From an uncultured Chloroflexia bacterium (GTDB lineage: Bacteria; Chloroflexota; Limnocylindria; QHBO01), in assembly GCA_963825525.1 (NCBI GenBank), contig CAWGTN010000002.1, positions 1,664,001-1,728,000 on the forward strand: DNA of 64,000 nt, written 5' to 3'. Below, piece after piece: positions 39,282 to 54,041 of the stretch. The notes beneath the pieces are model-generated. The model had not been told where the DNA came from. It saw only the letters and a program-made list of their open reading frames with translations, and ran no database searches. The translations under genes and the position numbers were made by a program. Positions within the stretch are counted from its first letter, which is position 1. The number at the start of each line of letters is the position of its first letter.

Positions 39282-41017
39282 TTACGGGCCGCTGGTCCCG
39301 GAGCCGCTCGCGAACACCGCCGGTCCGTACCATCCGGCGGAGGGCGGATTCAGCGGCCGGACCTCGTCGGCGACGTCGCCGGTGTTGCGCGTCACGAGCA
39401 GGAGCCGCGCCGATGGCGGATCGAGCACGCCTGCCCGAGAGCTGGCCGCCGTGATGAGCAGATGACGCCCGGTCGGGAGCGATCTTGACGTCGACCGCGC
39501 GCTCGCCTTCGGCCATGTCGGCATCGTCGATGGCATGGCGTTCGGGTCAGGCCGCGAGGATCGCTCGCGTGCCCGAAGTAGACGTTTGCCGCATCCGGGT
39601 AGACATCCTCCGCCGGTCCCTGCGATGTCCCCAGCCAATCGACATTCCATACCGCCAGCGCATCCCCATCCGCTCCCCAGGCGATGGCCGCCGATGCGAA
39701 TGCGCTGCGCCCGATGCTGAGATCGCTGAACAGCTCGCGTGAGTTGGCGAACTCGTAGCCGCCGGCGCCGTCTCCCACGTTCTCGGCCAGCCACGGCGCA
39801 CCACCCTCGCTGAAGAGCCACCCGGACCCGTCGGGCTCCATGCGCCCCGACCAGAAGATGACCAGCGCGCCGTTGGGCGAGATGAGGGGCTGGAACACGT
39901 TCTCGGCCGCGGGATATGGCCCATCCGCCGGGTCGGACGGCGCGGCGCCCGAGGGACCATCGCGGGAGATGCTCGTGAGATAGCTGCGTGGCACGTCGCC
40001 GGCGGTGCTCACCCAGAGATGTGTGCTTCCGTCGTCTTCGAGCACCCAGCTGCCGGCATAGGCGTTGCCCACGTTGGTGATCGGCTCTGCCTCCTCCGCG
40101 CCGACGTTGAAGACCCAGGCGTCCGCCTCGCCGCTGCCGGCGTCCGAAACCGTGAATGCCAGGTTGTAGGCGTCCGGCGACCATGCCATGCGCTCGAGGA
40201 ACGGGCTGCCGGCCGTCGACTCGGCAAGCACCAGCGTGTCACCCACGGCGACCGGGGAGTCGATGGCGTCGAAGCCCGGCAGCGGCGTATCGGTGATGCG
40301 GGTCGCGCGGATCTCGTTGAGGCCGCTCTGGCCCAGCTCGGTGATGTAGGCGAGCCACTGACCGTCGGGCGACAGCTCGGCGGCGATGGGCGGTCCGGCC
40401 GGGGTAGCAACTTCCGCGAACGTGTCGCCGCTGTCCCCGTCGCGCACCGTCAGTGCCTGGTTGTCGACCGGGCCGGTCAGCGCCAGAAACGCATCGGGTT
40501 CCGGCGACGACGCAATCGGCGAGGCCGACGGGACGGGCACGTTCGAGATCGTCGGGGAGGCGAGTGCGCTCCCGCTCGGTTCGGGCGTGGCGCTGATCGA
40601 CGGGTCGGCGCTGCCGGACGGGCCGATGACCTCGGTTGGGGTCGGCGTGTTGCGCCCGATATCCGGGCCGGCCGCCGAGCCGTTGATGATGACGATGGCC
40701 AGGAGGGCGCCGGCGACCGCGGCCAGGCCGCCACCGACCCCGGCGAAGATCACCGCGGGCCGCCGCCACCATGGCAATCCCGCCAGGCGTCCGGTCTCGA
40801 TTCCGGTGCGGACCCGGGCGTCGAGGTCCCGGGGCGGGGCAACGTGTCGGAGGCCGGCGATGATCCTGCGCTGATCGGTGAACGCGGCCAGGGTGGCTCG
40901 ACAGGCGGCACAGCCGGCCAGGTGCGCATCCAGTCGCTGGCGTTCCGCGTCGCTCAGGTCGTCGCTCAGCGACGCGCTGATGAGCTCCTCGAACGACTCG
41001 TGGCGGTTCATGGTCAT
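39282..41017 (-). CDS. Zinc-binding (ZAS) anti-sigma factor with TM helix and extracytoplasmic beta-propeller-like domain (two +1 frameshifts near 39540 and 39475)
   Basis: HLAGCAACR HxxxCxxC, TM helix, Pro/Ser/Thr linker, SPDG/WSPD/SPNG repeats; C-terminus recovered over three frames. Confidence 0.82.
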
Positions 41018-41619
41018 CGGACGAATCCCTCGGCCGCCAGGGCGCGGCGCATCTCGCCGCGAGCACGGCACAGGAGCGTCCGAACCGCCGCGTAGGAGAG
41101 GTCCATCACCTCGCCGATCTGGTGTGCGCTCATGTCGTCGAGGTCGCTGAGCAGCAGGCACTGACGATGGTTCGGACGAAGCTGCATGAGCGCGCGCTGC
41201 ACCCGCTCGTCGAGCGTGGCCGCCATGACCTGCGCCTCCGGCCCGGGGCCCTGATCGGCTCGATTGGCGTAGACGTCGGCGTCGTCGCCCATGGGCGAGA
41301 CCATCCGGCGCCGGCGCATGTCGTCGATGGCCGTGTTCGTGGCGATCCGATACAGCCACGAACGGGTCGCGGCCGAGTCGGTGATGGTGTCGAGCTTTCG
41401 ATAGGCCTTGATGAACGTGTCCTGGGTGATGTCGGCGGCCCGGTCGGGGTCGCCGACCATGCGGAGGACGTAGTTGTGAATCGGTGAGGAGAACTCGTCG
41501 AATATGCGTGCGAACTCGGCCTCGCGGTCACTGGTGACGCGCTGGGTCACCGTGGGAGCCTCCCACGGGAGCCGGCCGTGAATCGCCACAGACTCCACCT
41601 CGTCCTCCGCAATACCCAC
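41014..41619 (-). CDS. ECF RNA polymerase sigma factor
   Basis: AADITQDTFIKAY, SWLYRIATNTAID, AAVRTLLCRAR; overlaps the anti-sigma start; exact start uncertain. Confidence 0.92.
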   Translation of the reverse strand: MGIAEDEVESVAIHGRLPWEAPTVTQRVTSDREAEFARIFDEFSSPIHNYVLRMVGDPDRAADITQDTFIKAYRKLDTITDSAATRSWLYRIATNTAIDDMRRRRMVSPMGDDADVYANRADQGPGPEAQVMAATLDERVQRALMQLRPNHRQCLLLSDLDDMSAHQIGEVMDLSYAAVRTLLCRARGEMRRALAAEGFVR

Positions 41620-43754: not shown

Positions 43755-44335
43755 TCGTACTCCCAGCTGCGCCGATGTTCAAGCGCCAGCCACTCGTCGC
43801 GCAGCAGGCTCATGACGTGGACATCCTCGTGAGCGCCGCGTGCGAAGTGGGCGCGGCGCAGCGTGCCCTCGTGGACGAAGCCGGCGCTGCGGTACGACCG
43901 CACGGCCCGCTCGTTGCTCGCGTACACGTGTAGCGCGATGCGCTCGAGGCGCAGCTCGCCGAAGCCGAAGTCGCAGATGGCGCGAAGTGCATCGGTCCCG
44001 TACCCCTTGTTCCACTCGCCCTTCTCGCCGATGGCGATGCCGAACTCGGCGTGGCCGCTGCGCTGGTGGACCTCGTGGAGGCCGGCGGTGCCGATCGGGC
44101 GGTCATCGGCCAGGAGGCAGATCACGAAGTGGTAATCGGTCTTGCCCTGCGCTTCGACCATGCGGTCGAACCAGCGCTCCTCCATGGCCGCGCTCAGGGG
44201 CGCGCGGTTCATGAGGTGACGCGCCACCTCGGCGTCGTTGAGCCATTCGACGAAGCGCGGGATATCGTCCTGCTCGGATGCCCGGAGATACACGTGCTTG
44301 CCCCGGATGATCCGCGCACGGTCCGAACTGCCCAT
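43751..44335 (-). CDS. GNAT acetyltransferase, RimJ/RimL family
   Basis: VYLRA, FGIAIGEKGEWNKGYGT, NERAVRSY, GFVHEG, DVHVMSLLRDEW. Confidence 0.9.
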   Translation of the reverse strand: MGSSDRARIIRGKHVYLRASEQDDIPRFVEWLNDAEVARHLMNRAPLSAAMEERWFDRMVEAQGKTDYHFVICLLADDRPIGTAGLHEVHQRSGHAEFGIAIGEKGEWNKGYGTDALRAICDFGFGELRLERIALHVYASNERAVRSYRSAGFVHEGTLRRAHFARGAHEDVHVMSLLRDEWLALEHRRSWEYD

Positions 44336-44366
44336 GATCGCGAGTGTAGCGGCGGTCGCTCAGCGA

Positions 44367-45459
44367 TCAGAGCCCGACGAGCATCCAGGTCTCGTCGAGC
44401 GCCGCGTCGGAGGTGCGGCCCCCGAACAGGAACGCGCGACCGCTGACGGGGTCGATGCGCCAGCTCCGCACCTGCCCGGGCCGCCGGAGCCTCGCCGACG
44501 GGCTCGAGTCTCGCCACCGTTTCGTCATCGGCCATCAGCCAGAGATCGGCGAGATAGGTGCCGTCGACCGCCTGCCCACCGACGACGAGAGTCGCCGCGT
44601 CGAGTCTCGTCCTCGCGTACAGGTTGCGGCCCGGCGGGAGCTCGGCCTCGACCCGACGCCATGCGTCGCCTTCGAGGACCCACAGGTCGTCCAGCGCGGT
44701 GAGGCCGGTGGTCTGGCCCGCGTACAGGGCAAGGGCTCCCTCGTCCGTCCACCAGCAGCCATGAAGGCATCGCTCAACTGGCCGCCGCCCGTCTGCCGGC
44801 GTCACGTCCGACCAGGTCTCGGTCACGAAGTCGTAGGCGCGCGTGTCCGAGAACCGGGTTCCCTCCTGGGTGAAGCCGTGGCTCATCCACAACCGTCCGT
44901 CCGGCCCGACGGCGACGCACGATCCGTAGCGCGGGGTCGGCACCGCACCGCTGGCGGGCAGCTGCCGCCAGGCATCGGCCGTCGGGTCATATGCCCAGAG
45001 GTCGCTGAAGAAGGTCGTCGGTCCACCCTGACCGGCGAAGATCACGACGCCGACTCCCTCGACCCAGGCTGCTTCGTGGCCGAATCTTGGCGCGGGCGAG
45101 GCGGGCGGGCTGAGTTCGCTCCAGGTCCGATCCTCGAGATCGAAGGCCCACGTGTCGGCGAACACGGTGGTCCCGCTGCGGCCACCGAACAGGTAGGCGA
45201 TCCCGGACGAGCCCGCCACCGTCCAGGTGTGGTCCTCCCGTTGGCTCGGCCCCGCGACGTCGAGACGCTCCCATGCCAGGGTCACCGGCTCGGTGGTGGC
45301 GACGGTGGAGGCGGATGGATGGGAGGACCGGTCGCTGGGTGCGGCCGACGGTGGTGTGCTGGGCGTGGCGCCGGGATCAACCGTCGTGGGGGTCGGCGTG
45401 GCGGCGCCGCATCCGGTCACCAGCATCACCAAGGCGGCCATCATCCGGACTCGATTCAT
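44367..45459 (-). CDS. Kelch-repeat lipoprotein (one +1 frameshift near 44457)
   Basis: Lipobox VTGC; repeats YLFGG...DTWAFD, IFAGQ...DLWAYD; last blade IDPVSGRAFLFGG...ETWML in shifted frame. Confidence 0.82.
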
Positions 45460-45532
45460 GGGTGACAAGCATACGCTCGGGTCGGCAGACCCCCGGATGG
45501 ATCCAATGCTGCCGCCTGCGCGTCATGTCGGC

Positions 45533-45637: not shown

Positions 45638-45713
<76 letters not shown>

Positions 45714-46054: not shown

Positions 46055-46309
46055 GTGATGGCCTCCTCGGATTTCGCTGGCACGTCGCCGTGCTCATCGG
46101 TACTGAACTGTCTGCGGTCATGGTCGGCCCCGGGCGGCGATCCGCGCGATCGACTGGCAGACGCCCCGGGCGTCCCCTTGCCGATGCGAACGTGGTCACC
46201 GGTGTCACACGGCACCGGTCGCCCATCCGACAACTCTTGACGGAATCCTCGACCGGAACGAGAGTGTCGGCACGACCGGATTCCAGCCCACCGCCCCGAG
46301 GGATGACCC

Positions 46310-47005
46310 GTGCCGGACCACGAACTCGCCATTGCCAGCCTCCGCCGATGCGCGCTGTTCGCCCACGTCGAAGACGATGGGCTGCGGCTTCTGGTCGGGC
46401 TCATGCGGCCGCGGCGCTTCCGCCGCAACGAGGTGGTGTTTCACCAGGGCGACGTCGGCGATGCGCTCCACATCGTGGTCGAGGGTGGCGTAAAGATCGT
46501 TCTCCCCTCGGCCGAGGGTGACGAGGCGATCATCGCCAGCCTCAAGGCGGGCGATTTCTTCGGGGAACTGGCGCTGCTGGACGGCTCGCCGAGGTCGACC
46601 ACCGCCACCGCGCTCGAGCAGACCGAGACGCTCGCGCTGCCGCGTGACCAGTTCCTTGGCCTCTTGCCGGACGATCCTCGGCTCGTGACGGCGCTCTTGC
46701 GGGCGCTCGCCGCCGAGCTCCGTCGCCTGACCGGCCACGTCGAGGAGCTTCACTTCCTGGACCTCGCGGGCCGGCTCTCCATGCGCCTCGTGCGGCTGGC
46801 GCGCGCGAGCAATCCCGATGCGGCCGACCGAGTCGAGCTCGATTGGCCGTTCACCCAGTCCGACCTGGCCGCGATGATCGGGGCGACACGACAGAGTGTG
46901 AACAAGCTCCTCAGCGGCCTGGTCGACGAGGGCCTGATCGAGATCGATCGCGACACCCTGATCATCGTGGACCTCGCGGCCCTCGAAGCACGTGGGGCGC
47001 GGTGA
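46310..47005 (+). CDS. Crp/Fnr family transcriptional regulator
   Basis: VFHQGD, GDFFGELALLDGSPRSTT phosphate-binding cassette, TQSDLAAMIGATRQSVNKLL HTH. Confidence 0.94.
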   Translation: MPDHELAIASLRRCALFAHVEDDGLRLLVGLMRPRRFRRNEVVFHQGDVGDALHIVVEGGVKIVLPSAEGDEAIIASLKAGDFFGELALLDGSPRSTTATALEQTETLALPRDQFLGLLPDDPRLVTALLRALAAELRRLTGHVEELHFLDLAGRLSMRLVRLARASNPDAADRVELDWPFTQSDLAAMIGATRQSVNKLLSGLVDEGLIEIDRDTLIIVDLAALEARGAR

Positions 47006-47006
47006 A

Positions 47007-47024
47007 GTGTCCGATTTCAGACAC
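47007..47024. promoter_or_regulatory. Palindrome with CRP-like geometry upstream of the repeat-peptide gene
   Basis: GTGTC-cgatttca-GACAC (TGT-N10-ACA). Confidence 0.4.
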
Positions 47025-47223
47025 ATGGCATGTCGCATCGGCGCTTCGTCGGCTTGCGAGGCGCCGATAGGATGAGCAAAGCGCGGTACCACTGCCGCCA
47101 CCGCCACAGGAGGGTTCGGATCATGGATCTCCGCCATCGGCAGCAGCCAATGGCATCATCCGCCGGACCAGACCAGCCCGGCGGCAAGTCATTCGAACAG
47201 CGCAGTTGAGAGGGAAACCAGAC

Positions 47224-47592
47224 ATGACGGACCAGCGCGACGACAGGATCGACGACGTCGAAGGCCACGGCTTCCGCAAGGGCGCCACTGACGACAAGCC
47301 CGAAGGCAGCGACTTTCGAAGCAACTCCGACGACGATGTCGAGGGTCACGGCTTCCGCAAGGGCGCCACTGACGACGACGATGTCGAGGGCCACGGCTTC
47401 CGCAAGGGCGCCACTGACGACGACGATGTCGAGGGTCACGGCTTCCGCAAGGGCGCCACTGACGACGACGATGTCGAGGGTCACGGCTTCCGCAAGGGCG
47501 CCACTGACGACGACGATGTCGAGGGTCACGGCTTCCGCAAGGGCGCCACTGACGACGACGACACCGAAGGCCACGTGATGAACCTCAGGTAG
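47224..47592 (+). CDS. Tandem-repeat peptide precursor (DDDDVEGHGFRKGAT)n, 122 aa
   Basis: GAGAGGGA SD; synonymous variation between repeats (GGT/GGC, GAG/GAA, GAT/GAC) supports this frame; 13 nt from the GAF gene. Confidence 0.85.
   Translation: MTDQRDDRIDDVEGHGFRKGATDDKPEGSDFRSNSDDDVEGHGFRKGATDDDDVEGHGFRKGATDDDDVEGHGFRKGATDDDDVEGHGFRKGATDDDDVEGHGFRKGATDDDDTEGHVMNLR
47329..47553 (+). repeat. Five tandem 45-nt repeats, plus a diverged copy at 47251-47295
   Basis: GACGACGATGTCGAGGGTCACGGCTTCCGCAAGGGCGCCACTGAC x5, one T>C in copy 2; no spacers. Confidence 0.97.
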
Positions 47593-47605
47593 CAGGTCGC
47601 TATCT

Positions 47606-48382
47606 GTGGACCAGGAGTCCCAGGCCGCGCTCACCGCACTCGTTGCGGGGGCGCGGCGTTCTGCCGTCGGTCGCCGGTTGCAGGGCGACATCGAGACCCG
47701 GCTGCTGCAGAGCATCGTTGACGCCACCGTCCGCCTGTTCGACGCGGAGGCGGCGTCAATCGCCCTGTTCGAGCAGGACCCCGATCGCCTGGAGTTTCGC
47801 GTTGCGGCCGGTGAACAGGGGGCCGGCGCCGTTGGACTGACCGTGCCGCCAACGCAGGGCATTGCCGGATTTGTCTATTCGACCGGCCAGGCGCTGTCGC
47901 TGTCCGACGTCGCCAACGATCCGAGATTCAACCGCGACGCGGCTGAACAGACCGGATACGTGCCACGCTCGATTGCGGCCGCGCCCCTCCTGGATGAGGA
48001 AGGTGCCGTCGGTGTCCTGCAGGTCCTGGACAAGCGCGGATCGCCGACATTCTCCCTGCAGGACATGGAGCTCCTCGGCGTGTTTGCCGCGCAGGCGACG
48101 GTCGCGATCTCGGCGGCCAAGGTCCAGCGCGACACGGAGCGTCTGCTTCGCTCCACGATCGGGCGGGTCGGGCCGGACCTGGGCGACGAGGCCATCGAGC
48201 AGCTCGTCTCGTCGGCCACCATCGGCCTCGACGTCGACGATGAAGCGCCCTTCTGGCGACTGGTCGACCAGGTGGCGCGACTTCGGTCGCTGAGCGATGG
48301 CGAAGTCGCGCTGGTCACCGACATCCTGTCCGTGGTCGCCGACCACGCCGGACGCCGGCGACGCCCACAGGCTGGGCGGTGA
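47606..48382 (+). CDS. Stand-alone GAF domain protein
   Basis: AEAASIAL, GIAGFV, DVANDPRF, TGYVPRSIAAAPL, GVLQVLDK...F...DMELL; no output domain. Confidence 0.9.
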   Translation: MDQESQAALTALVAGARRSAVGRRLQGDIETRLLQSIVDATVRLFDAEAASIALFEQDPDRLEFRVAAGEQGAGAVGLTVPPTQGIAGFVYSTGQALSLSDVANDPRFNRDAAEQTGYVPRSIAAAPLLDEEGAVGVLQVLDKRGSPTFSLQDMELLGVFAAQATVAISAAKVQRDTERLLRSTIGRVGPDLGDEAIEQLVSSATIGLDVDDEAPFWRLVDQVARLRSLSDGEVALVTDILSVVADHAGRRRRPQAGR

Positions 48383-49222
48383 CCGACCAGCTTCCGGCAT
48401 GGTCTGAACCATTCGCCGACCCGCGAGGGACCCTGCGCCGTCCGCTGCGACTGCGCGGATTGACACGGCGACTGGGCGTGGGGCGGTTCCACCGGGAAGG
48501 GCATTCGCGTCGGGATCATCGACTCGGGCCTCGAGAACGCCCATCCGAGCCTCAAGGGTCGCGTCGTGCAGAACGTCACCGTCGAGCTGGGTGAGGATGA
48601 GCCCGTTGTCGTGCCCGACGGCGAGCAGGACATGTTCGGCCACGGCACCGCCTGCGGCGGGATCATCGTCGGGCTCGCCCCGGAGGTCGAGCTCGTTTCG
48701 ATTCGTGTGCTCGGCGCCGACCTCCGTGGCAAGGGCGCCGCGTTCGCCGCCGGGCTCGAGTGGGCGATCGAACAGGGGCTGGAGGTCTGCAACCTGAGCC
48801 TCTCCTCGAAGAGCGAGTCGCTGTATCCGGTCTTTCACGATCTCGCCGATCGCGCCTACTTTCGAGGGACGGCGCTGATCAGCGCGGCGAACAACGTTCC
48901 GGCGCCGAGCTATCCGTCGTTGTTCTCGTCGGTGTTCTCGGTGGCCGCTCACGGCGAGCCCGATCCTCAACGCCTCTACTACAACCCGCAGCCGCCCGTC
49001 GAGTTCGGCGCCTGGGGCGTCGACGTTCCGATCGCGTGGAAGGACGGCGGGTCAACCGTGGCGACCGGCAACAGCTTCGCCGCGCCGCACGTGGCCGGTA
49101 TCGTGGCGCTCATCCTGTCGAAGCATCCGGGCCTGAGCCCGTTCGAAGTCAAGGCGATCCTCGCCAGTGTTGCCGACAATCCCGGTCGGCGCGCCTCGCG
49201 GCGCGCGGTCAGCCGGCCATGA
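48379..49222 (+). CDS. S8 family subtilisin-like serine peptidase, no signal peptide (one +1 frameshift near 48468)
   Basis: After correction: DWAWGGSTGKGIRVGIIDSG, GHGTACGG, NLSL, AANN, TGNSFAAPHVAG. Confidence 0.9.
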
Positions 49223-50844
49223 GCCTGGTCTCCACCTACGTCGAGCTGTTCCGACGCAACCACGCTCTGGCGCGTCTGCTGGCGGGAGAGTTCATCTCCG
49301 GCATCGGCGACTGGCTCTACCTGGTCGCCATCCTGGTGGTGGTCTACGCGGAGAGCAATTCGGCGGTGCTCCTCGGCATCGTGGGCGCTGCGCGCATCCT
49401 GCCGTACGTCCTCCTGTCGGTTCCGGCGGGAATCGTGGCCGACCGTTTCGACCGCCGCATGGTGCTGCTGGTGACCGACGTTGCGCGCGGAGTCCTGATG
49501 TTGGTCCTGGTTGGCGCCGTGATCGTGGATGCGCCGACGATCGCCATCGTGGGCCTTTCGATCCTGGCCGCCTGCTTCTCGACATTCTTCGGGCCGGCCA
49601 TCGCCGCGCTGCTGCCGATGCTGGTCGACGAGAGCGACCTCGGTCCGGCGAACAGTGCCTGGGCGACGCTCGACAACGTGGCCTTCATCGTGGGTCCGGC
49701 CCTGGCCGGCGTCCTGTTGGCGAGCGGCGGGCTTGAGTTCGCTTTCCTGCTGAATGCCGTGTCCTTCGGCGTCGTGGCCATCGTCCTGTGGCGGCTGCCG
49801 GTGCCGCGTCGCGCCCCGCCCAGCCAGGAACCGGGCGCCGAATCCTCCGAGGCAGAGCCAACATGGCGACACCTCGTCCGACCCATGGCCGGGCCGTTCG
49901 TTCTCGACTCGGCGACGAGCTTCGTGGGGGGCGGCGTGGGCGTCATGACCGTGGTCATCGCCGTCGACGTGCTCAGCTCCGGTGAGGCAGGCACGGGCTA
50001 CCTGAATGCTGCGACCGGCGTGGGCGGAGTGATCGCCGGGATCGCCGGTGGCGCGCTGCTGGCGCGACGGCTCGGCGTGCCACTGGCCATCGGTGGCGCG
50101 GCGGGAGCGATCGGGCTGGCCTGGCTGGCAATCGCCGGCGATCTCCTGACCGCCATGCTGGCCATCGGGGTGGCGGTGGCCGGCCTGCTGCTCCTGGACG
50201 TGGTGAACACCACGCTCATCCAGCGCATCGTTCCGGATGATCTTCGCGGTCGAGCGATGGGCGTGCTGCAGACGACGTCCGCCGTCCTGTATGCCCTCGG
50301 GTCACTGGTCATGCCGTTGCTGGCGAGCGTGATCGGCGTTCCCTACGTCCTCGTCGGCTCGCTCGTGATCGTGGTTGCCGGGGTCGTCGTTGCCCTCGTG
50401 CTGTCGCCCGCTGAGGGTGTTCCGACCCAGCTCGACCCGCGGCGCGCGCGGTTGCTCGAGCACTCGATCTTCCGAGGGCTGCCGACCGGACGGCTGGAGT
50501 CCGCCGCGCGCCAGCTCATCGAGGTCCCGATGGAGGCCGGCACCGTGATCATTCGCCAGGGCGACGTGGCGGATCGCTTCTACCTCATCGGCGACGGATC
50601 GGTGGCGGTGACGCAGGAGCCCGACGGCGGCGGAGCCCAGGAGCATCTCCGCGACCTCGGGGAGGGAGACGTATTCGGCGAGATCGGCCTCCTGCGCCGA
50701 TCACCTCGCACCGCGACCGTGACCGCCACCAGCAGCGGCACGCTCCTCGCGCTCGACGCGCCGATCTTCCGCGAGCTCGTCGGATCCGGGCCCGGTCTGA
50801 GCACGCGGCTGCTCGACCTCTACCGCGGGGCGCTCGCTCGCTGA
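49219..50844 (+). CDS. MFS transporter with C-terminal cyclic-nucleotide-binding domain
   Basis: GIVADRFDRR motif A, multiple TM helices; IIRQGDVADRFYLI...GDVFGEIGLLRRSPRTATV; ATGA overlap with the peptidase. Confidence 0.92.
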   Translation: MSLVSTYVELFRRNHALARLLAGEFISGIGDWLYLVAILVVVYAESNSAVLLGIVGAARILPYVLLSVPAGIVADRFDRRMVLLVTDVARGVLMLVLVGAVIVDAPTIAIVGLSILAACFSTFFGPAIAALLPMLVDESDLGPANSAWATLDNVAFIVGPALAGVLLASGGLEFAFLLNAVSFGVVAIVLWRLPVPRRAPPSQEPGAESSEAEPTWRHLVRPMAGPFVLDSATSFVGGGVGVMTVVIAVDVLSSGEAGTGYLNAATGVGGVIAGIAGGALLARRLGVPLAIGGAAGAIGLAWLAIAGDLLTAMLAIGVAVAGLLLLDVVNTTLIQRIVPDDLRGRAMGVLQTTSAVLYALGSLVMPLLASVIGVPYVLVGSLVIVVAGVVVALVLSPAEGVPTQLDPRRARLLEHSIFRGLPTGRLESAARQLIEVPMEAGTVIIRQGDVADRFYLIGDGSVAVTQEPDGGGAQEHLRDLGEGDVFGEIGLLRRSPRTATVTATSSGTLLALDAPIFRELVGSGPGLSTRLLDLYRGALAR

Positions 50845-51828: not shown

Positions 51829-52875
51829 GTGGACCACGTCGTCGCCCGCTATGAGCGCATCGTGTCCGATTGGTCCGCCCGGACCGCGGATCCGATGGAT
51901 CTCGTGCGCCTCGCCGCCGACGCCGCGCGGCTGGCCGCGGATGCGAGTCCAGGCTGGTACGGCTCCCAGAGTGGCGCGCTGCGTGCCGCCGCGCTGGCCG
52001 CTGCGGGCCATCCACCGGACATCGCGGTCATCATCGATGCGGATCTGCCGCCGGTCGATCCCACTGCGCCGGCTCGCCTCGCCGATCTGCTGCCCGGTGA
52101 CGGGCCGCTCCACGAGCGCATCCATCGCCATCGCGCGACGATGTTGATCCCGCCGGACCGGCTCGCCGAAGTTGCGGCTCGGCTGCTGCGATTGTTCCAG
52201 CGCCGAGCGACCGAGGACCTTGAGCTCGGCCAGGGCGTGCCGCTGGAGATCGGTCTCGCTCGACCGCGGAACGCCGGACCGGCAGAGGTGGAGTTGCCTG
52301 CAAGTTCGCCCCGCCTGAAGCTCGACTCCGGCCGAGCCTGGACCGCCGAGGCGTTGGCGCGGTGCATCACCGGGCGGGGAGTCCCCGGCGACTACCTCTT
52401 CGCCACGCTCCGGCCCGCGAGGCCGTCGTGGCATCCCAGCCCCCAGGACACCGTGGACCATGGGCTGCGCGCCGTAGGTCGCGAGGTGCTGCTGAGCGAC
52501 CACGAGCTGGGTCACGAGTTGCAGCGCATCGGGCGAGGCATCGGCGTGCCATGGGACGCCGAGCTGATCCTCGGCGTCTGGCGCGCAACCGATGATCTTG
52601 CGCCGGCACGGGCGGCGGCATTGGCAGCGGCAGTCACCCGCCACGAGCGCCGAACTCGAGTCCCTGGGCATGGCGCCGACGGTCGGCCGCCTCCGTCGTC
52701 GAGCGGGCTTCGGACCCGCTGGAGCGGGCACGCTGGGTGGCGAGGGCGGCCGGCCCACCCCTGGTTCGTCGGTGGCTGACGGTCACCGGCCAGACCGTCG
52801 GACTCGGACGCCTGGTGCGCGAACATCTCGTCCCGTCCCAGCTGCGCGTGGAGGTCGGGAATGCCGGAGCATTGA
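51829..52875 (+). CDS. Hypothetical protein resembling a degenerate DUF885-like protein (+1 frameshifts near 52640, 52681, 52870)
   Basis: LADLLPGDGPLHERI, VPGDY, corrected C-terminus DPLERARW...LVRRWL...REHLVPSQL; family call is inference. Confidence 0.55.
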
Positions 52876-54041
52876 GCGGTCCGTCGACGTTCTCCTGGTC
52901 GGAGGTGGCGTCGCGTCGGTTCGATGCGCCCGCGCATTGCGGCGCAATGGCTTCGATGGTTCGATCCTGCTGGTCGGCGACGAGGAGCGGCCGCCATACA
53001 ACCGCCCTCCGCTCAGCAAGGAGCTCCTGCGCCTTGATCTGCCGGACGACCTGGTCGATGCCGAGCCCGATGCCTGGTATCGGCGCCGATCGATCGATGT
53101 GATGACCGGCACCGCCGTGCGCACCCTGGAGCCGGAAGGACGGTCGGCGGTGCTCGCGGGTGGCGACACCATCCGTTTCGGCCGATGCCTGCTGGCCACC
53201 GGGGCCGAGCCTCGCCGCCTGTCGACTCCCGGGGCCGAGGAGGCCATGCTGCTGCGAACGTTCTCGGACGCTCGCAGGTTGAGATCCGCGGCAACGTCGA
53301 TGGAGCGCGGGGCCACCGCGGCGGTCATCGGCGGTGGATTCATCGGTCTGGAGGTGGCTTCCGGTCTTGCAGAGCTCGGCCTGCGTCCCATTGTCCTGGA
53401 GCAGGCCGAGAGGCTGTGGGGAGGCCGCCTCGGACGACTTCTCGAAACCTGGGCAGTCGGACCGGCTGCGATCCGCCGGCATCGAGGTCCGGTTCGGCGC
53501 CGAGGTCACTCGCCTCGACCCCGGGTCGATCCATGTCGGCGACGAACGCATCGAGGTCGGAATGGCCGTTGCGGGCATCGGCGTGCTCCCACGCTCGGAT
53601 CTTGCCGCGAGCGCCGGATTGGAGACCGACGACGGCGTGGTGGTGGATGCCGGCGGCCGGACGAGCCACCCGGCGATCTGGGCGGCCGGTGATGTCGCGC
53701 GATACGGGCCACTTCGCGTGGAGCATTGGCACGCGGCCCGAGAGTCCGGTGAGCGTGCTGGCCTCTCGATGCTGGGCCTACCTCTGCCCGACGTTCCGCC
53801 GCCGTGGGTCTTCACCGAGGTTGTCGGGATGGCCGTGGACATCGTCGGCGACGCGGCGGAATGGGACGACGAGCAGTGGCTGATTCCCGATCGCCTGCTC
53901 GTCCACACCAAGGCGGGCAGGGTCGTGCGGATCATCTCCATCGGGTCGGAGATGCCAGCGGGCGTCCTGCGCGAGGTGGTCGCCGCGCGCGAGTCAACCG
54001 AGTCGGTCAGCGCCCGGGCGGCCAGGCTGAACCGCCAGTGA
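52861..54041 (+). CDS. FAD-dependent NAD(P)H oxidoreductase, ferredoxin reductase type (+1 frameshifts near 52870 and 53460)
   Basis: GGAGG SD before ATG 52861; LLVGGG, PYNRPPLSK, LLATG, VIGGGFIGLE, WAAGD, RVEHW. Confidence 0.88.

Follow-up and report, generated by a model that had tools for sequence, protein, structure and literature searches.

In several described systems a protease of family S8 removes the leader of a small ribosomal peptide by reading a short motif in front of the cut. ElxP, the LanP-type protease of epilancin 15x, recognizes five non-prime residues of the form (D/E-5)(L/V-4)X2(Q-1), and PatA of the cyanobactin pathways cleaves after G(L/V)E(A/P)S (PMC10885120). The leaders of the nitrile hydratase-like leader peptide (NHLP) group have Val or Leu at position 10 and Gly-Gly at positions 12-13 of their logo (PMC2887384), and for StsA the leader cleavage site is stated as unknown in PMC10288494. 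Outside family S8, WprP2 of Streptomyces venezuelae cuts after each repeat of the precursor WprA2 and then cuts again (PMC12957482). Here we describe a locus in an uncultured Chloroflexia soil bacterium of the Limnocylindria, on a stretch of 64,000 nt (positions 1,664,001 to 1,728,000 of contig CAWGTN010000002.1, assembly GCA_963825525.1; the window), which encodes a Crp/Fnr-family regulator, a multi-core precursor peptide, a GAF protein, an S8 subtilase and a major facilitator superfamily (MFS) transporter fused to a cyclic nucleotide monophosphate (cNMP)-binding domain (Table 1). The gene set is conserved and apparently undescribed, and comparison of its relatives leads us to favour, with some reservation, the reading that it is a cNMP-gated module for peptide production, whose origin would be the leader-removal and export core of clusters for peptides made on ribosomes and modified after translation (RiPPs).

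The precursor, of 122 amino acids (aa), carries seven D[VT]EGH motifs, five of which repeat at an exact spacing of 45 nt from position 47335; GFRKGAT follows six of them, and VMNLR and the stop codon follow the last. Each unit consists of a short basic core, an A-x-Dn spacer and [VT]EGH, with neither Cys nor a signal peptide, and no hydrophobic stretch was found in the window precursor. The repeat is genuine, the repeat-unit contig of sequencing run X1 having a depth of 47 against 9.4 for the flank, and a six-frame scan of the genome (2.58 Mb, 92% complete) finds this one D[VT]EGH array. The precursor had no match in the PDB by sequence or in NCBIfam and matched only unnamed clusters, below 0.9, in the ESM Atlas; its exact sequence is absent from the protein collection searched. 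The model PF21627 (BTH_I2711-like) scores 33.5 bits summed over the repeats (cut-off 27), but no single stretch passes and the best covers positions 22-37 of 71. The protease belongs to peptidase family S8 by its fold, its Asp/His/Ser triad (D48/H88/S232) and its oxyanion Asn (N172), which are invariant in 95 rows of the alignment. Its model is a complete subtilisin fold without a prodomain (predicted local distance difference test, pLDDT, 91; predicted template modelling score 0.91) and superposes on subtilisin BPN' with Z 28.8 and a root-mean-square deviation of 2.5 over 222 aligned residues. It has no signal peptide or hydrophobic N terminus, and a 28-aa N-terminal extension is conserved.

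By analogy, the locus would work like a RiPP leader protease with its export core, although it falls outside the cyanobactin, lanthipeptide, NHLP and QhpE groups. It shares with ElxP a cytoplasmic S8 protease and a recognition sequence in register with D-V-E-G-H (PMC10885120), and the motif has Gln variants among relatives; an enzyme without a hydrophobic N terminus and this motif would fit a reader of an acidic P5, an aliphatic P4 and a polar P1, the cleavage being predicted from sequence. In contrast to LanP/ElxP-type lanthipeptide systems, no lanthipeptide synthetase was recognized in the window and the precursor is multi-core and free of Cys, in place of a Cys/Ser/Thr core, whereas a GAF partner, a Crp operator and a cNMP-fused exporter are added. 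With the cyanobactin proteins PatA, PatG and PatE it shares repeated cores split by S8 sites, an A-x-D element after the core and, at the PatA site, Val or Leu at P4, Glu at P3 and a small residue at P2 (PMC10885120). The original prediction had seen in this the logic of PatE and PatA, and the register does fit the S8 leader proteases, although the letters differ, D[VT]EGH and A-x-Dn standing where cyanobactins have G(L/V)E(A/P)S and AYDG. There is moreover one small protease of 280 aa instead of two large ones (18.3 against 421 bits for TIGR03895), no heterocyclase or prenyltransferase was recognized in the window, and the control would be by cyclic nucleotides.

The cyanobactin parallel bears on whether the products are plain linear peptides, as the subtilase might cyclize the units head-to-tail by transpeptidation, or enzymes encoded elsewhere might modify the cores. 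Identical units parted by one site would suit cyclization by a single enzyme, the A-x-Dn-[VT]EGH linker has a counterpart in the cyanobactin pairing of an AYDG follower with a PatA site (PMC10885120), and relatives of the protease work alongside LanL-like, radical SAM and iron-redox enzymes. We nevertheless judge such products quite improbable, given that the S8 protein is a minimal subtilisin fold which leaves the PatA/PatG model unmatched, that Cys occurs in only two of 103 arrays, and that no tailoring gene was recognized nearby and only one of the nine perfect operators in the genome precedes a peptide gene.

Orthologous S8-GAF pairs occur in NHLP, Os1348, Franean1_4349 and aroma-sacti (StsA-related) clusters, and the window motif is in register with the Gly-Gly site at the end of such leaders; the window precursor differs in having no folded leader or modifiable core, an S8 site replaces Gly-Gly/C39 processing, and leader models are matched only in relatives, such as locus L088 (L numbers denote the loci compared). 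WprP2 and WprA2 combine a bacterial serine protease with a multi-repeat precursor and set a precedent in which both ends are trimmed by a single protease, but the protease is of family S9, the cores are cross-linked by a radical SAM enzyme and no cNMP modules are described in the Results of PMC12957482. The best model of a small cytoplasmic S8 protease for the window enzyme is that of the QhpE subtilisin-like protease (NF049966, 111.7 bits over the full protein), which stays under the 165-bit cut-off, and no quinohemoprotein amine dehydrogenase (qhp) genes were recognized nearby. Signals of the Phr/PapR type are short, unmodified, strain-specific peptides whose secreted precursors carry a signal peptide and are processed outside the cell, and which act on RNPP receptors. 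The window system resembles them in the short unmodified peptides expected from a small precursor, but this precursor lacks a signal peptide, its multi-copy processing is predicted to be cytoplasmic, and neither an adjacent RNPP receptor nor any TPR gene was recognized in the window. A role against phages found no specific match, PADLOC returning shared-domain matches only (cNMP domains, generic subtilase); in phages the tandem-motif pattern gave two chance matches, both out of frame, and the best viral S8 protein is 31% identical.

The original prediction recognized no named pathway here, and searches of open-licence papers, besides the comparisons above, found no description of it. The full text searched described neither the module, nor a combination of RiPP, S8 and GAF, nor DVEGH, and held no paper on BTH_I2711, on a multi-core RiPP with a subtilisin or on subtilisin Gly127; titles and the starts of abstracts on NHLP and cyclic nucleotides held nothing on this system, and no paper mentioning Limnocylindria was found together with RiPPs.

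The module occurs in Chloroflexota and Actinomycetota, with varying gene order and orientation. The S8 gene is present in 32 of 36 congeneric genomes (one match weak), mostly at 83-91% S8 identity, and at least two motifs lie upstream of the GAF gene in 25 of 28 congeneric loci, the misses being two contig ends and one single motif. Of 401 Chloroflexota and 401 Actinomycetota genomes searched, 46 and 27, respectively, have an S8 orthologue. The congeneric, array-partner, stand-alone and Actinomycetota tallies include the unpublished genomes G034, G452, G542 and G574, on which no individual claim depends. Starting from the protease, we compared 40 of 49 Chloroflexota and 20 of 28 Actinomycetota places (own or same-genus, short-contig, already covered and unpublished places were left out). 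An automatic test found a small open reading frame (ORF) with at least two motifs in 26 of these 60 loci and in none of 100 control windows; a single motif was found in 43 of 60 loci, and is weak evidence because 20 of the 100 control windows also have one. On manual reading a [DE]-[VTA]-x-[GA]-[HQYF] gene was present in 37 of the 40 Chloroflexota and 14 of the 20 Actinomycetota loci. Starting from the peptide, a DNA pattern scan of species genomes gave at least 118 stretches, 80 of them with wide flanks; among the matches listed, these 80 comprised 55 arrays, eight membrane-type genes and 17 cases of noise, and 35 arrays were flanked by 4 kb or more on either side; of these, 28 had both S8 and GAF and 19 had all four partners. 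Motif genes standing alone were noted in ten genomes, seven of which encode S8 elsewhere. The scan of homologous S8/GAF neighbourhoods that the original prediction had proposed as a check thus turned up recurrent co-occurrence with motif arrays in two phyla, although DVEGH does not lie beside every pair: arrays recur, but other pairs serve precursors with Tyr, Phe or Gln at the His position. Two S8-GAF pairs are borne on megaplasmids, L307 on that of Miltoncostaea oceani and L309 on that of Gemmatirosa kalamazoonensis, and the pair of L307, like that of L291, comes after an ECF (extracytoplasmic function) sigma factor.

Congeners of the window locus have an N-terminal extension on the precursor, which is coding (30/44/136 non-consensus bases by codon position in 21 loci) and in most is fused to the array. 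DNA of a short upstream ORF in the window (47123-47209) aligns with this extension, and the ORF is its decayed, out-of-frame remnant; contigs of runs X1 and X3 show no gap there. Since the ORF is out of frame and those contigs are continuous, the extension is dispensable in this lineage. That it might act as an RNA element was considered and rejected, as variation falls chiefly at third codon positions and Rfam found a tRNA alone in 44-52 kb. The motif codons for E-G (47254-47574) often spell a purine-rich, ribosome-binding-like word, and congeners have a Met two residues beyond the first site; both may explain the loss of the upstream extension. Together with an array copy number ranging from 3 to 9, the decay would suit a relic of a RiPP cluster stripped of its modifying enzymes, whose repeats are functionless slippage products. 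This we find hardly credible for a module kept, with an invariant triad, in nearly all congeners, whose operator and promoter spacing are conserved and whose arrays span two phyla; conservation of the motif already suggests purifying selection on the site across lineages.

The protease is predicted to read D-[VT]-E-G-H as P5-P1 and to cut after His, an assignment made because the register matches known S8 leader proteases. In 103 arrays the acidic bias runs on upstream of the motif and entropy rises to 2.95-3.8 bits directly after His; the columns inside the motif are fixed by the search pattern itself, and their conservation in arrays is by construction. The protease side was compared in 89 full-length S8 sequences from 103 loci with a match (14 partial or frameshifted ones left out), labelled by the neighbouring motif before the columns were viewed: 62 His, 14 Tyr/Phe, two aroma-sacti His and 11 without motif. 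Just one of the 280 columns, column 142, has non-overlapping residues, Ser in 62 of 62 His loci and Gly in 14 of 14 Tyr/Phe loci, although the Tyr/Phe rows form one clade with four unlabelled rows (support 89 in a quick tree) and the Ser/Gly covariation is therefore about one phylogenetic event. This column (Ser142 in the window) aligns with Gly127 of subtilisin BPN', the Gly of the S-L-G segment, which we take to line the substrate groove and S1 pocket. L290, inside the Tyr/Phe clade, has Ala at column 142 and a Gln site.

Orthologous S8-GAF pairs also flank leader-core precursors ending in D/E-V-x-G/A-Y/F/H/Q. Helical leaders ending in DVQG-Y/F occur in L072-L074, L079 and L082; NHLP-like leaders end in EVSGY beside a LanL-like synthetase in L090 and L093, and in EVRGY in L076, L078 and L088; aroma-sacti leaders ending in DVQAY or DVQGY lie beside iron-redox or radical SAM genes in L083 and L085; and Streptomyces-type aroma-sacti leaders ending in EVQAH are coupled to cyclase-STAND, S8 and GAF genes in L299-L301 and are annotated in Streptomyces sp. 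NBC_00184. Family models agree in part, with L088 at 48.8 bits for NF038399 (cut-off 40), L085 at 60.3 for NF045560 (cut-off 30) and the LanL-like protein of L090 at 576.6, below its 650; a lanthionine synthetase context is found in L090, L093 and L097, with none recognized in the window. Because the same pair serves RiPP-type leaders, DVEGH appears to be one form of a general P5-P1 leader-protease site, in register with those of ElxP and PatA, and the window system would be a RiPP processing core without tailoring enzymes. No RiPP-modifying enzyme was recognized in the gene calls at 36-60 kb (no family-library scan was made), as the original prediction had said. For most of 17 distant S8-GAF loci the absence of a substrate was considered and rejected, as the motif pattern was too strict and other precursors were found; strict searches of those genomes gave single scattered matches. 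As further observations, unannotated precursors with a helical leader and a DVQG-Y/F site lie in L072:7858-8960, L073:8208-9256, L074:7815-8120, L079:5973-6233, L284 and L094, a family with Tyr/Trp/Pro-rich cores and up to three paralogues that has no family match among those scanned. The cassette of L299-L301 and L308:2538-7361 has a 9-residue core after EVQAH and translationally coupled genes; in NBC_00184 it is accompanied by genes for radical SAM and iron-redox proteins, a glycosyltransferase and an S9 peptidase.

The residue at the end of the motif also bears on whether the peptides bind metals. An invariant His with acidic runs might bind Cu, Ni or Zn, or a cut two residues earlier would leave an N-terminal Xaa-Xaa-His, which is a metal site of the ATCUN (amino-terminal Cu(II)- and Ni(II)-binding) type; the search pattern makes this His invariant within arrays, and His-rich cores occur (L075, L091, L150). 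This is very unlikely, as arrays with Gln in place of His occur in L080 and L295-L297 (L295, L296 and L297) and Tyr or Phe takes the position in 14 loci, where the pocket residue shifts too, and the loci examined show no recurring metal-homeostasis genes, while control would be by a Crp box.

A cut after His would release units of core, A-x-Dn spacer and site, a division drawn because terminal tails repeat the start of internal units, which then continue with Ala: 92 of 119 arrays that end in a stop codon finish 14 residues or fewer past the last His (median 5), 47 of these 92 terminate in Lys or Arg, and in 22 of 90 an internal unit begins with the sequence of the tail, going on with Ala in 13. 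Since units have a median length of 17 and a net charge of -3 (103 arrays) and rarely contain Cys, the products do not look like typical antimicrobials. Cores are homogenized within a gene and divergent between genomes, the first six residues being 0.81 identical within arrays and 0.15 between 18 congeneric genomes (18 arrays), and 103 arrays have 102 distinct commonest units.

Such divergence could also be read as that of a decoy. S8-GAF would then be a cNMP-controlled signalling protease forming an intracellular proteolytic switch, the array a co-induced decoy or timer soaking up protease, and the targets membrane-anchored proteins with two or three sites before a transmembrane (TM) helix, or small helical-tail proteins. 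Cores would be free to drift because the array is a mere decoy, in keeping with hypervariable cores beside a fixed site and acidic spacer; membrane-anchored motif proteins make up eight of the 80 peptide-first loci among the matches listed, plus L149, and lie beside S8 in L059, L062, L064, L065, L067, L069 and L091, and helical-tail forms occur in L070, L071, L102, L114, L144 and L176. We regard this switch as unlikely: the window's genome has no other motif protein (the membrane-type query matches the array only), orthologous proteases adjoin leader-core RiPP precursors, the transporter is translationally coupled, and the terminal cores, short, often Lys- or Arg-ended and repeating internal unit starts, are what would be expected of products. 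Larger motif proteins were seen in L117:5662-6246, L099, L128, L135, L147, L148, L149 and L155 and in the S8-adjacent set of the L059 type; they combine two or three N-terminal D[VT]EGH sites with a conserved segment, a helix resembling a TM segment and a tail of repeats (the protein of L117 has no match in Pfam or NCBIfam) and are candidate membrane-anchored substrates.

For the production module, the control that the original prediction ascribed to cyclic nucleotides now has a concrete putative DNA site. The operator TGTCR-N6-YGACA lies 420 nt or less upstream of 59 of 81 array genes and in none of 76 downstream control stretches, against a shuffle mean of 0.3 and 0-1 for alternative spacer lengths, and TANNNT follows 44-45 nt past it in 44 of 71 loci. 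Activation of class II by Crp takes place from about -41.5. The distance to the -10 hexamer and the 23-nt offset between sites would put a second, partial site near this position, as in a class II promoter, with the start site predicted from the same geometry. A generic sigma-70 scan did not detect the crp and precursor promoters. The regulator has the cNMP domain and Crp helix-turn-helix of the Crp/Fnr family and a palindromic site with a 6-nt centre; its cNMP pocket retains GE and RS, as GE and R[ST] are retained in most cluster Crps, and its recognition helix has Gln where canonical CRP has Glu. That Glu is missing from 65 of 70 cluster Crps, 53 of which have Gln. The operator accompanies 43 of 48 Gln-type, three of six Pro-type, none of one Val-type and none of five Glu-type Crps, and all five Glu-type loci (one family) have in its place TGTGA-N6-TCATA, one mismatch away from the CRP consensus; operator and recognition-helix residue thus covary. 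The operator also precedes Tyr-type precursors in L072, L073 and L079 and stand-alone arrays in L101, L104, L143 and L175. A wide Crp regulon was not supported, as seven of the nine perfect sites in the genome fall within coding sequence, the remaining two preceding the precursor and, in an intergenic position, a ribonucleotide-reductase-like gene (read from sequence).

The GAF protein, the likely partner of the protease, has a PDE/CyaB-type domain with N-terminal helices and a C-terminal helical extension and no catalytic output domain. Its profile match is the CyaB GAF domain (1ykd, E 1e-37; model pLDDT 86), its top solved relatives by profile and fold (1ykd, 4mcw, 5w10, PDE5/10/2) are mostly cyclic AMP- or cyclic GMP-binding, and 4mcw, PDE2A and Lcd1-cAMP are its fold matches. 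Prediction of a complex of two GAF copies with S8 scored 0.51 against 0.00 for the best control, with at least 68% contact agreement between runs and a partner pLDDT of at least 81. Of 157 solved complexes 116 attained the mark for such predictions, as did two of 215 mismatches, counts roughly applicable to this pair, and scores of 0.60 or less comprise only 18 of the 157 solved complexes yet both mismatches; the prediction lends weak support. Taken with constant adjacency and translational coupling, it makes a physical complex fairly likely. We know of no precedent for a GAF-gated subtilase. The transporter is H+ antiporter/MFS_3-like (153.6 bits for TIGR00900, below cut-off); three cNMP-type modules (Crp, GAF protein, MFS-cNMP) thus lie in one cluster, and the transporter-cNMP fusion recurs as an ATP-binding cassette (ABC)-cNMP protein in five distant loci (L074, L076, L079, L082 and L086).

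We propose the following mechanism. Crp would bind the operator and activate a class II-type promoter for precursor, GAF, S8 and MFS genes, a step for which the sequence support is strong. The GAF protein may complex with the prodomain-less subtilase and control it through a bound cyclic nucleotide. A cut after His, suggested by register and covariation, would release, in the window's genome, several 15-mers with GFRKGAT at their start, a longer spacer unit and the pentapeptide at the end, with other peptidases perhaps trimming the acidic tail; the cytoplasmic cutting of a polyprotein into short peptides, as originally predicted, is supported by comparative genomics only. The transporter would export the unmodified peptides once its cNMP domain is loaded, most likely for use as a short-range, lineage-specific signal with feedback on nucleotide cyclases. 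The genome has 13 class III cyclase domains, no cyclase gene lies in the window itself, and 26 of 101 non-redundant S8 loci include a cyclase, which in 23 has a STAND domain, compared with 10 of 208 tiles of the window's own genome, a background that comes from one genome, with non-independent kin and two of four cyclase queries taken from S8 loci. Pfam recognizes TPR in L090 and L104. Stand-alone DVEGH arrays with an operator (L104:551-3655, L175:2064-3464) were seen a few kb from cyclase-STAND(-TPR) genes and not beside a protease. A fuller and rather doubtful version would be a self-amplifying loop, in which cNMP drives Crp, the GAF-gated subtilase and export of prohormone-like multi-copy peptides, and cyclase-STAND-TPR proteins sense these peptides and produce further cNMP; placing it in soil Chloroflexota and Actinomycetota, with a cNMP-fused MFS or ABC exporter, is equally tentative. 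Its other half, in which S8-GAF would supply the leader protease missing from aroma-sacti and Os1348/NHLP clusters and from some of the class IV lanthipeptide type, is possible rather than expected.

Several observations weigh against the production module as proposed. Among the matches listed, only 23 of the 35 fully flanked loci have MFS and only 24 Crp; nine of the 60 S8-first loci have no motif peptide on manual reading; neither motif peptide nor operator was present at L307 and L309 (12.7 kb read); and three of the ten genomes with stand-alone arrays gave no S8 match (completeness not given). Next to the single-clade origin of the pocket change, the single family of the five Glu-type Crps and the limited cyclase background, L292 and L294 have Gly at column 142 outside the Tyr/Phe clade, with no precursor found, and the best fold match of the GAF protein, 4mcw, is not a proven cNMP binder. 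Only a single protease is present, which leaves a clean, PatG-like C-terminal cut unexplained. The core identity of 0.15 between congeners is awkward for a fixed receptor, and no receptor gene adjoins the system in the window.

If the proposed mechanism holds, it would define a peptide pathway widespread in two dominant soil phyla, which RiPP mining misses because there is no modifying enzyme, and provide a bacterial protease under the control of a distinct GAF protein of the cyclic-nucleotide type, a candidate leader protease with its cut site (after [DE]-V-x-[GA]-[HQYF]) for several RiPP precursor families, and a natural Crp specificity variant together with its operator. Cultured hosts are available in Geodermatophilus sp. 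CPCC 205761 (L105) and Streptomyces sp. NBC_00184 (L308).

Table 1. Features of the locus (positions in the window)
Feature	Position	Strand	Remarks
Crp/Fnr-family regulator, 231 aa	46310..47005	+	Pfam PF00027 (cNMP_binding) E 1e-26, PF13545 (HTH_Crp_2) E 5e-17
Multi-core precursor, 122 aa, 7 D[VT]EGH sites	47224..47592	+	
GAF protein, 258 aa	47606..48382	+	Pfam GAF E 2e-19
S8 subtilase, 280 aa once frame restored	48379..49222	+	PF00082
MFS transporter fused to C-terminal cNMP-binding domain, 541 aa	49219..50844	+	Pfam MFS_1 E 5e-37, cNMP_binding E 3e-19
Putative operator, perfect palindrome TGTC-N8-GACA	47008..47023	.	upstream of precursor gene
Putative operator copy with one mismatch	46217..46232	+	4 nt ahead of crp promoter hexamer TTGACG (46237-46242)
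Second, partial operator site	47031..47046	+	23 nt downstream of first site
-10 hexamer TAGGAT	47068..47073	+	no canonical -35
Upstream ORF, 28 codons, own ribosome-binding site	47123..47209	+	out of frame with array
Small divergent gene, 72 aa	45836..46054	-	conserved beside crp in the genus
tRNA gene	45641..45713	-	immediately outside cluster

All five co-oriented genes were confirmed, with their junctions (13-nt gap, GTGA overlap, ATGA overlap) being exact, and gene calls and Pfam domains bear out the original identities of the peptide, GAF, S8 and MFS-cNMP genes. The set of five stands, but it probably comprises two transcription units, crp and the genes from precursor to MFS, since a conserved TTGAC promoter belongs to crp alone and the peptide gene is preceded by an operator and a -10 hexamer of its own; the one-mismatch operator copy makes autoregulation of crp possible. 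Neither the upstream ORF at 47123-47209 nor the operator at 47008 had been noted in the original prediction. A single surplus base near 48467 interrupts the S8 reading frame, which had been marked for correction. This is an assembly error, since intact 280-aa proteins of 99-100% identity exist (P0001-P0004), the frame is continuous in 28 of 28 related loci examined, and contigs of four of four runs, from four studies, have one base fewer at 48467 or 48469. Genes elsewhere in the window also look divided between frames (39392-41066, anti-sigma-like; 44209-45468, Kelch-like; 52737-54041, FAD oxidoreductase-like), which suggests additional indel errors. Close S8 homologues carry the names Candidatus Limnocylindria or Chloroflexota.

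A tRNA-like sequence upstream of crp is also seen in the congeners L091 and L107. The 72-aa divergent gene has homologues of 42-69% identity beside crp in seven loci (L151, L119, L124, L154, L137, L118 and L136), and its relatives have a hydrophobic C-terminal segment. It is loosely similar to the helical tails after DVEGH in L070, L071, L102, L114, L144 and L176, and its position is occupied in L155 by two DTEGH-motif genes.

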